This document shows, in pieces, positions 12,042-47,296 of a stretch of 64,000 bases of DNA (positions within the stretch are counted from its first letter, which is position 1; each line of letters opens with the position of its first letter). Position numbers and translations under genes: made by a program. The notes under the pieces were generated by a model that searched no databases, was not told the DNA's origin, and saw nothing but the letters and a program-made list of their open reading frames with translations. This DNA comes from Solobacterium sp. (lineage in GTDB: Bacteria > Bacillota_I > Bacilli_A > Erysipelotrichales > Erysipelotrichaceae): positions 2,117 to 66,116 of the forward strand of contig JAFRJJ010000072.1 of assembly GCA_017432325.1 (NCBI GenBank). The letters are read 5' to 3'.

Positions 12042-12599
12042 ATGGCAATTGAAGCTGGCGATTTCAAAACAGGATTAACAGTAATTGTAGACGGCGACCC
12101 TTGGGTAGTCCTTGATTTCATGCATGTAAAACCCGGCAAAGGCGCTGCGATCCTGAAGACAAAGATGAAGAACCTGAAGACAGGTTCCACACAGGAAAGA
12201 AACTTCAACGCTTCCACAAAATTCGAGCAGGCAAATATCGAGAGAAAGCAGGCTCAGTATTCCTATGAAGCTGATAACGTATTCTACTTCATGGATCTGG
12301 AAACATATGAATCCTATGAACTTGGTTCCGACCATGTCGGTGACAACAAGTACTATCTGATCGACGGCATGAGTGTTATGCTGACATTCTTCGAAGGCCA
12401 GGTACTTGATGTTACGCTGCCTGACCGTGTTACTCTGACGATCGTTGAGACAACACCGGCAATCAAAGGCGCTCCGTCCACACAGACAAAAGACGGAAAG
12501 ACAGAGACGGGTCTGACACTGAGGATCCCTCAGTTCATCGAGGAAGGCGAGAAGATCCTCGTTTCCACAGCTGACGGCAAATATTCCGGCAGAGCGTGA
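12042..12599 (+). CDS. efp: Elongation factor P
   Basis: HVKPGKG tip loop, FMDLETYE, TETGL, YSGRA; strong RBS AAGGAG. Confidence 0.97.
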   Translation: MAIEAGDFKTGLTVIVDGDPWVVLDFMHVKPGKGAAILKTKMKNLKTGSTQERNFNASTKFEQANIERKQAQYSYEADNVFYFMDLETYESYELGSDHVGDNKYYLIDGMSVMLTFFEGQVLDVTLPDRVTLTIVETTPAIKGAPSTQTKDGKTETGLTLRIPQFIEEGEKILVSTADGKYSGRA

Positions 12600-47000: not shown

Positions 47001-47028
47001 AGCCTCTGCTGATCATCAAGCAGAGGCT
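47001..47028 (-). terminator. Terminator of the tRNA pair
   Basis: AGCCTCTGCT/AGCAGAGGCT, with a T-run on the minus strand. Confidence 0.7.
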
Positions 47029-47033
47029 GTGTC

Positions 47034-47107
47034 TCGGGATGACAGGATTTGAACCTGCGACACCATCGTCCCTAACGATGTGCGCTACCAAGCTGCGCTA
47101 CATCCCG
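47034..47107 (-). tRNA. tRNA-Pro, anticodon AGG (CCA not encoded)
   Basis: Minus strand: CGGGATG TA GCGC AGCTTGGTA GCGC A CATCG TTAGGGA CGATG GTGTC GCAGG TTCAAAT CCTGT CATCCCG A. Confidence 0.92.
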
Positions 47108-47120
47108 GTGATATAAAATA

Positions 47121-47195
47121 TGGCACCCCCAGTAGGAATCGAACCTGCAACTAACCCTTAGGAGGGGTTTGTAATATCCTTTTTACTATGGGGGC
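47121..47195 (-). tRNA. tRNA-Arg, anticodon CCT
   Basis: GCCCCCA..AACCC CTCCTAA GGGTT..GCAGG TTCGATT CCTAC TGGGGGT G CCA; one C.A mismatch in the T-stem. Confidence 0.9.
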
Positions 47196-47296
47196 ATGTG
47201 CTCAATTATTATACAGTAATTTCCGGAAAAAGATAGAGAAAAAGAAATTTTTTTCAAAACAGAATATTTTTCTGCCTGATAGGTTATAGTTTCTGT

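Follow-up and report, generated by a model that had tools for sequence, protein, structure and literature searches.

A 74 nt tRNA-Pro gene with the anticodon AGG lies on the minus strand of the window, by which we mean the whole 64,000 nt stretch of DNA analyzed here. The features of the locus were as follows:

47034..47107, minus strand: tRNA-Pro(AGG) gene, 74 nt (ARAGORN, Rfam RF00005, sequence)
47071..47073, minus strand: anticodon A34 (47073), G35 (47072), and G36 (47071), with G37 at 47070 (sequence, ARAGORN)
47121..47195, minus strand: tRNA-Arg(CCU) gene (ARAGORN, Rfam, relatives' sequences)
47001..47028, minus strand: intrinsic terminator with a 10 bp stem (6 GC pairs) and an 8 nt loop, then TTTATTT
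47208..47257, minus strand: promoter-like region upstream of tRNA-Arg (consensus match alone)

Both genes were called by ARAGORN, as tRNA-Pro(agg) and tRNA-Arg(cct), and scored 61.9 and 55.6 bits, respectively, against the Rfam tRNA model (gathering score 29). The 5' part of the tRNA-Pro transcript reads CGGGAUG UA GCGC AGCUUGGUA GCGC A CAUCG UUAGGGA CGAUG, and the rest reads GUGUC GCAGG UUCAAAU CCUGU CAUCCCG A. It carries C1:G72 and A73, a perfect GCGC/GCGC stem around a 9 nt D-loop, and the anticodon loop U32 U33 A34 G35 G36 G37 A38, in which A34 is the complement of T47073 on the plus strand. The CCA end is not encoded in this gene but is encoded in the orthologues of relatives. The tRNA-Arg gene lies 13 nt upstream and the terminator begins 6 nt past the 3' end of tRNA-Pro; the two tRNAs are probably co-transcribed. 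The promoter-like match before tRNA-Arg is TTGAAA-16-TATCTT (9/12), and a perfect TATAAT lies at 47213-47208. The preliminary description had reported an intact cloverleaf with the loop UU-AGG-GA, the ProRS elements, G37, the GCGC-closed D-loop, and an adjoining tRNA-Arg(CCU) ahead of a terminator, and all of these were present.

The D-arm of tRNA-Arg(CCU) is A-rich (GUAA AAAGGAUA UUAC), and its T-stem has a single mismatch, C50-A64, where relatives have C:G or U:A, as if a compensatory change had been carried out on one side only. Elsewhere in the genus, a second, ordinary Arg(CCU) type (GUCCUCG...) stands at the same place. An EF-P gene is found in the same window (12042-12599, plus strand). 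The genes flanking the tRNA pair are ordinary chromosomal ones (DUF3810, a pentapeptide-repeat protein, Fe-ADH, and an MBL-fold protein), syntenic in relatives with 91-95% amino-acid identity, and a contaminant or mobile element was rejected on these grounds.

Proline tRNAs of the genome and signs of function

The genome that contains the window is a 3.34 Mb draft in 90 contigs (48% GC; estimated completeness 94.7% and contamination 2.8%). Its 45 tRNA genes include the proline isoacceptors AGG, CGG, and UGG. As the preliminary description had supposed, Pro(GGG) was not found among these 45 genes, and Arg-ACG was the sole other A34 tRNA. Cys-GCA, Ser-GGA, and Leu-UAA were not found in this genome either, as might be expected of an incomplete draft. 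An assembly gap does not explain the lack of GGG, because the four nearest species (G092, G078, G065, and G067) also carry AGG and no GGG. A 97 nt tRNA-Ile(UAU) called by ARAGORN on another contig (G000:C58:49103-49199, minus strand) was set aside as a probable false positive, since its acceptor stem is weak and its extra arm long.

All ProRS identity elements (G35, G36, A73, and G72, the last in C1:G72) are present in tRNA-Pro(AGG). Since the genome encodes a bacterial-type ProRS (TIGR00409, 587 bits), the E. coli-type identity rules, with which this tRNA agrees, should apply. In the E. coli system, G36-G37 leads to m1G37 formation by TrmD, and a 4 bp D-stem with a 9 nt D-loop leads to recognition by EF-P; tRNA-Pro(AGG) has G36-G37 and a stable 4 bp D-stem closing a 9 nt D-loop. 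Among 27 diverse AGG tRNAs, 99.6% of stem cells were paired and both partners had changed in 15 of 21 pairs, far more than in shuffled and slid controls; the search pattern had fixed the D-stem, which is uninformative in this count. Pair 28:42 is A28:U42 in the window gene and U28:A42 in relatives within the genus.

Distribution and origin of tRNA-Pro(AGG)

The window genus consists of Stecheria-like Erysipelotrichaceae (class Bacilli), which are close to the Mollicutes. Pattern searches of 116 species genomes of this genus, 80 of them of high quality, gave the following counts:

Pro(AGG): 45/116 genomes; 29/80 high-quality genomes
Pro(GGG): 15/116 genomes; 8/80 high-quality genomes
AGG and GGG together: 0/116 genomes; 0/80 high-quality genomes
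Neither AGG nor GGG: 56/116 genomes; 43/80 high-quality genomes

The absence of any overlap between AGG and GGG has a hypergeometric P of 3e-4 under independence, with phylogeny ignored. As A34 occurs in 44 other species, the anticodon is not a private SNP, and the core of the tRNA is identical in all four nearest species. When GTDB species genomes were scanned for exact matches to the genus-specific AGG sequence, 27 records were obtained, including Stecheria intestinalis Oil+RF-744-GAM-WT-6 and Erysipelotrichaceae bacterium NK3D112; many of the records are ruminant-gut MAGs labelled Solobacterium sp. or Erysipelotrichaceae. S. intestinalis and the rumen strain NK3D112 are cultured members of the genus. 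A tree of 81 genomes built from RpoB+RpoC requires at least 12 changes of the AGG state, which is interleaved with GGG. Part of these changes are likely to be tRNA genes missing from MAGs, as in G100, G013, and G016, which are near-identical to AGG species. In an order-wide sample of 401 genomes from 109 genera, AGG was confined to three genera: the window genus, g67 (6/6 sampled species, with a different anticodon arm), and g85 (1/1 sampled species).

Elsewhere, a degenerate tRNA-Pro(AGG) pattern matched at least 119 species genomes, and none of the matches listed came from the window genus; ARAGORN confirmed Pro(agg) in 113 of the 119 listed. The matches listed include Christensenellales-type Clostridia (Borkfalkia, Scatosoma, Coproplasma, and Gallimonas), rumen Bacteroidales, and the Succinivibrionaceae Succinivibrio and Succinatimonas, together with single genomes of Reichenbachiella, Defluviitaleaceae, Clostridium lapidicellarium, Saccharibacteria, Kaiserbacteria, and Acidobacteriota. 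The recurrence thus spans at least four phyla, with independent origins of comparable genes in several phyla of gut bacteria. The rarity and novelty claimed in the preliminary description were therefore overstated, the more so as non-Arg A34 tRNAs of bacteria have already been reviewed (PMC8879553).

In Christensenellales-type MAGs (L031, L035, L043, L046, L049, and others), most Pro(AGG) genes have U1:A72 (UGAGG...CCUCA-A) and lack C1:G72, and the neighbouring Pro(CGG) retains C1:G72. The U1:A72 pair may reflect a different ProRS type or relaxed acceptor recognition.

The three CCN-specific proline isoacceptors of the window genus are nearly alike in the acceptor, D, and T arms and differ in the anticodon arm. 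The AGG arm, CUUCG-UUAGGGA-CGAAG (with a CAUCG/CGAUG stem in the window's own clade), is the arm of CGG, whereas the GGG arm, CUUGA-AUGGGGU-UCAAG, is the UGG stem with A32/U38. In two species (G011 and G082) the 44 nt cores of AGG and CGG differ at nucleotide 34 alone. The same is seen in an unrelated Clostridia MAG (L040), whose tandem CGG and AGG genes are identical save for nucleotide 34; in a Prevotella MAG, AGG adjoins a near-identical UGG. Sequence comparison thus traces the AGG gene to a CGG-type one that underwent one substitution, C34 to A. A direct G34-to-A change in GGG was rejected, as the GGG arm differs from the AGG arm at six other positions. AGG species retain CGG and UGG genes as well, so that AGG adds a decoder to the set and is no damaged form of CGG.

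In one species (G105), the GGG gene lies 12 nt after tRNA-Arg(CCU), as AGG does in its neighbours G021 and G030. The simplest reading is an origin in three steps, in which a CGG-type gene or arm would have arrived at the locus downstream of tRNA-Arg(CCU), its C34 would have changed to A, and Pro(GGG) would have been lost, leaving AGG in its place. The preliminary description had proposed that the lineage replaced GGG with AGG. The replacement stands in that the two are exclusive over 116 species and occupy the same type of locus after tRNA-Arg(CCU), but the CGG-type arm speaks against a simple G34-to-A change, GGG persists in 15 species, and about half of the species have neither gene.

Codon use and the reading of A34

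Proline codons were counted in four gene sets of the genome:

ORFs >= 150 aa: CCG 54%, CCU 24%, CCC 16%, CCA 5.6%
24 ribosomal proteins: CCG 50%, CCU 35%, CCC 15%, CCA 0.8%
11 other highly expressed genes: CCG 51%, CCU 39%, CCC 8%, CCA 2%
RpoB and RpoC: CCG 53%, CCU 27%, CCC 19%, CCA 2%

CCU and CCC together make up 40% of the proline codons of the genome. An earlier impression that these two are common and CCA scarce was borne out in part, as CCU and CCC are sizeable and CCA is low, but CCG is the dominant codon. The highly expressed sets differed from the rest (chi2 p=1.6e-7), with CCU rising to 35-39%; Ala and Thr also favour U-ending codons in highly expressed genes, so that the CCU enrichment is not specific to proline. 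Across the genus, as judged from rpoB+rpoC, species with neither AGG nor GGG had a GC3 of 0.39 and used CCA and CCU, whereas AGG and GGG species had a GC3 of about 0.59 and CCG predominated. At equal GC3, the CCC share was 6.8% in AGG species and 2.0% in GGG species (p=0.0014), and the window's own clade had the highest CCU+CCC share in the genus (46-48%). These data indicate that an extra pyrimidine reader goes with GC-richer genomes and that AGG supports the use of CCC at least as well as GGG does. Codon use was also considered as a discriminator between A34 and I34, but it does not discriminate.

The GC3 of rpoB/rpoC ranges from 0.35 to 0.80 inside this one GTDB genus (loci L280-L359), and the proline tRNA set tracks it, low-GC3 species having UGG and CGG alone and GC-richer ones adding GGG or AGG. 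The genus therefore offers a natural three-state comparison (AGG, GGG, and neither) of tRNA set and codon use against GC content.

We propose that AGG fills the CCU- and CCC-reading role that Pro(GGG) has in other bacteria, in which case the CGG tRNA would read CCG, and the UGG tRNA would read CCA, CCG, and the rest. An unmodified A34 would form a Watson-Crick pair with U and a protonated A+:C wobble with C, and it would be aided by the two strong G:C pairs that positions 35 and 36 form, as in the Salmonella proL G34A mutant. The box has four codons, its A34 is encoded in the gene, and it contains a U34 isoacceptor but none with G34, which is the arrangement of naturally unmodified A34 tRNAs. 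To our knowledge, the bacterial A34 tRNAs with G35 have all proved unmodified where tested so far. The TadA enzymes of Salmonella and E. coli do not edit tRNA-Pro(AGG), and this tRNA nevertheless matches GGG approximately in its reading of CCC, by way of a protonated A:C pair (PMC3711424, PMC6103715). An orthogonal tRNA(AGG) in E. coli contained no inosine and decoded CCU and CCC about equally (PMC11066159). In Oenococcus oeni, Leu-AAG is edited and the G35-containing Thr and Ser A34 tRNAs are not (PMC8072771); Mycoplasma capricolum tRNA-Thr(AGU) has a naturally unmodified A34 (PMC8072771, PMC3711424); and, according to a review, the non-Arg A34 tRNAs that some bacteria encode are mostly apparently unmodified (PMC8879553). 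That the tRNA has arisen in one step again and again, in at least four phyla, argues that no enzyme change was needed, which also fits an unmodified A34. On these G35 precedents, and given that no general TadA signature was seen (below), A34 of tRNA-Pro(AGG) most probably stays unmodified. We put at roughly 60% the probability of the reading as a whole, namely that the gene encodes a functional chromosomal isoacceptor of CGG-type origin which would be charged with proline and would read the pyrimidine-ending codons with an unmodified A34. If so, plain-A decoding of CCU and CCC would be a normal bacterial strategy.

It is possible, although we consider it rather unlikely, that a TadA of widened specificity, now accepting G35, instead converts A34 to inosine, so that tRNA-Pro(IGG) would read CCU, CCC, and CCA as in eukaryotes. 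The genome contains a single tadA (NF008113, 155.5 bits; G000:C52:45479-45940, L150 1399-2031), the product of which ends in a basic C-terminal extension of 27 aa. The TadA of Streptococcus pyogenes, which gained Leu-AAG as a substrate, likewise carries such an extension, and substitutions at positions 35 and 37 are tolerated by this enzyme (PMC11472039). The loop UUAGGGA fits neither the E. coli consensus YUACGAA nor the S. pyogenes consensus YUAMGRA, G35 being the misfit, but it departs from the streptococcal one at position 35 alone, and C35 has just one hydrogen bond to TadA (PMC11472039). Two further points agree with inosine: genomes with A34 have lost G34, which is also the case in I34 systems, and CCC is commoner in AGG than in GGG genomes. 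Against this, we know of no bacterial TadA that acts on A34-G35; the enzymes of E. coli, Salmonella, and O. oeni fail to do so (PMC3711424, PMC11066159, PMC8072771). CCA, the codon gained by I34, is near absent (5.6%, and 1-2% in highly expressed genes).

A comparison of TadA sequences bears on both sides of this question. The C-terminal tail is longer in AGG genomes of the genus (median 15 aa) than in GGG genomes (10 aa) and those with neither (12 aa). A tail motif, FFxxKRxxP[KRH][KRS], also written KRKKPKRDxxxF, was found in 27/42 AGG, 0/13 GGG, and 2/35 "neither" genomes (Fisher p=4e-10, uncorrected for ancestry), and the last two are incomplete MAGs next to AGG species. In contrast, 15 AGG species, among them the isolate S. 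intestinalis, lack the motif, and the TadA of rumen Bacteroidales with Pro(AGG) ends right after FFKxKR, without a tail. In an alignment of 90 TadA sequences of the genus (loci L191-L279), no core column separated AGG from non-AGG species. Independent contrasts went at best 5-6/12 in one direction and none in the opposite one, which is not significant after about 500 tests, and the best columns were mostly changes to GC-richer codons; the association as a whole is likewise not significant after multiple-testing and phylogenetic correction. No TadA signature common to the AGG lineages was found. A second deaminase or ADAT3-like partner was not detected in the genome (sole other match, 28 bits), and second TadA-like genes occur in AGG and non-AGG species alike. 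The association of the tail motif with AGG could reflect co-evolution, and, being unexplained, it is the main reason why we give inosine the weight that we do. That a proline-containing basic tail co-evolved with the tRNA and lets the TadA homodimer accept G35, yielding tRNA-Pro(IGG), is a more specific proposal and seems to us distinctly improbable. If it were true, no earlier I34 tRNA of a bacterium would have had a purine at position 35, and the system would be a natural stepping stone toward the eukaryotic multi-substrate deaminase; any I34 here would mean that bacterial TadA specificity has widened toward a eukaryote-like range. In a Succinatimonas MAG (G462, L361), the TadA open frame continues for 675 aa, either as a fusion to a long C-terminal region or through a missed stop.

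The AGG gene might also be redundant or decaying, a little-used and neutral leftover, with a U34-modified Pro(UGG) reading all four codons as in Bacillus subtilis. We consider this very unlikely. Although 56/116 species of the genus live with UGG and CGG only and the window gene lacks an encoded CCA, the gene is kept in 45 species, where its stems pair perfectly and show compensatory changes, it never occurs together with GGG, and it has a promoter-like site and a terminator. Moreover, CCA and CCU are the codons of the "neither" species, in which GC3 is low, whereas the GC-richer species with AGG make use of CCC; the highly expressed genes are also enriched in CCU. Finally, an assembly error, private SNP, or contaminating contig, for which only the 90-contig draft and its estimated 2.8% contamination could be cited, can be dismissed, as the same A34 occurs in 44 other species of the genus, the core is identical in the four nearest, and the flanks are syntenic in relatives at 91-95% amino-acid identity.

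Comparison with known A34 tRNAs

According to textbook wobble rules, bacteria avoid A34 outside tRNA-Arg(ACG). Dozens of species break this rule here, having exchanged the G34 tRNA for proline for one with A34. Two papers by Rafels-Ybern reportedly list extra bacterial A34 genes. No paper among those searched names a natural bacterial tRNA-Pro(AGG), and the two lists may already include one.

Among systems with inosine, eukaryotic tRNA-Pro(AGG), which becomes IGG through ADAT2/3, has the same gene-encoded anticodon and likewise no GGG. ADAT2/3 is a heterodimer that ignores the loop sequence, whereas the genome studied here has no ADAT3-like partner or second TadA. The tRNA-Leu(AAG) of Lactobacillales (O. 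oeni, Streptococcus pyogenes, and oral streptococci), which becomes IAG, resembles Pro(AGG) in being a second A34 tRNA that replaced a G34 isoacceptor across clades of Bacilli, with shifts in codon use (PMC11472039, PMC13249217). It differs in having A35, where Pro(AGG) has G35, and in its proven TadA editing, which for Pro(AGG) is a possibility.

The Thr(AGU) of M. capricolum and the Thr(AGU) and Ser(AGA) of O. oeni come from relatives in the Bacilli or Mollicutes (PMC8072771, PMC3711424). They share with Pro(AGG) a four-codon box, G35, the lack of G34, and a retained U34 tRNA that reads the A-ending codon. They serve other amino acids, and their A34 is unmodified, as that of the window tRNA probably is.

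The closest counterparts are laboratory constructs. The proL G34A mutant of Salmonella enterica (Chen, Bjork and co-workers 2002, as summarized in PMC3711424 and PMC6103715) has the same anticodon in the same box and no GGG, and the orthogonal E. coli tRNA(AGG) shares the anticodon and box with the window tRNA, again with GGG absent (PMC11066159). In both, CCC is read about as well as CCU and A34 is unmodified. Both were made by a G34-to-A change in a GGG body, whereas the window tRNA is natural, fixed in many species, and built on a CGG-type arm (U32/A38). Bacterial A34 tRNAs for amino acids other than Arg form a small class that is already known; tRNA-Pro(AGG) is one of its natural members and also the natural counterpart of a known laboratory mutant. 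Proline is the four-codon box in which nature most readily repeats the Salmonella G34A experiment.
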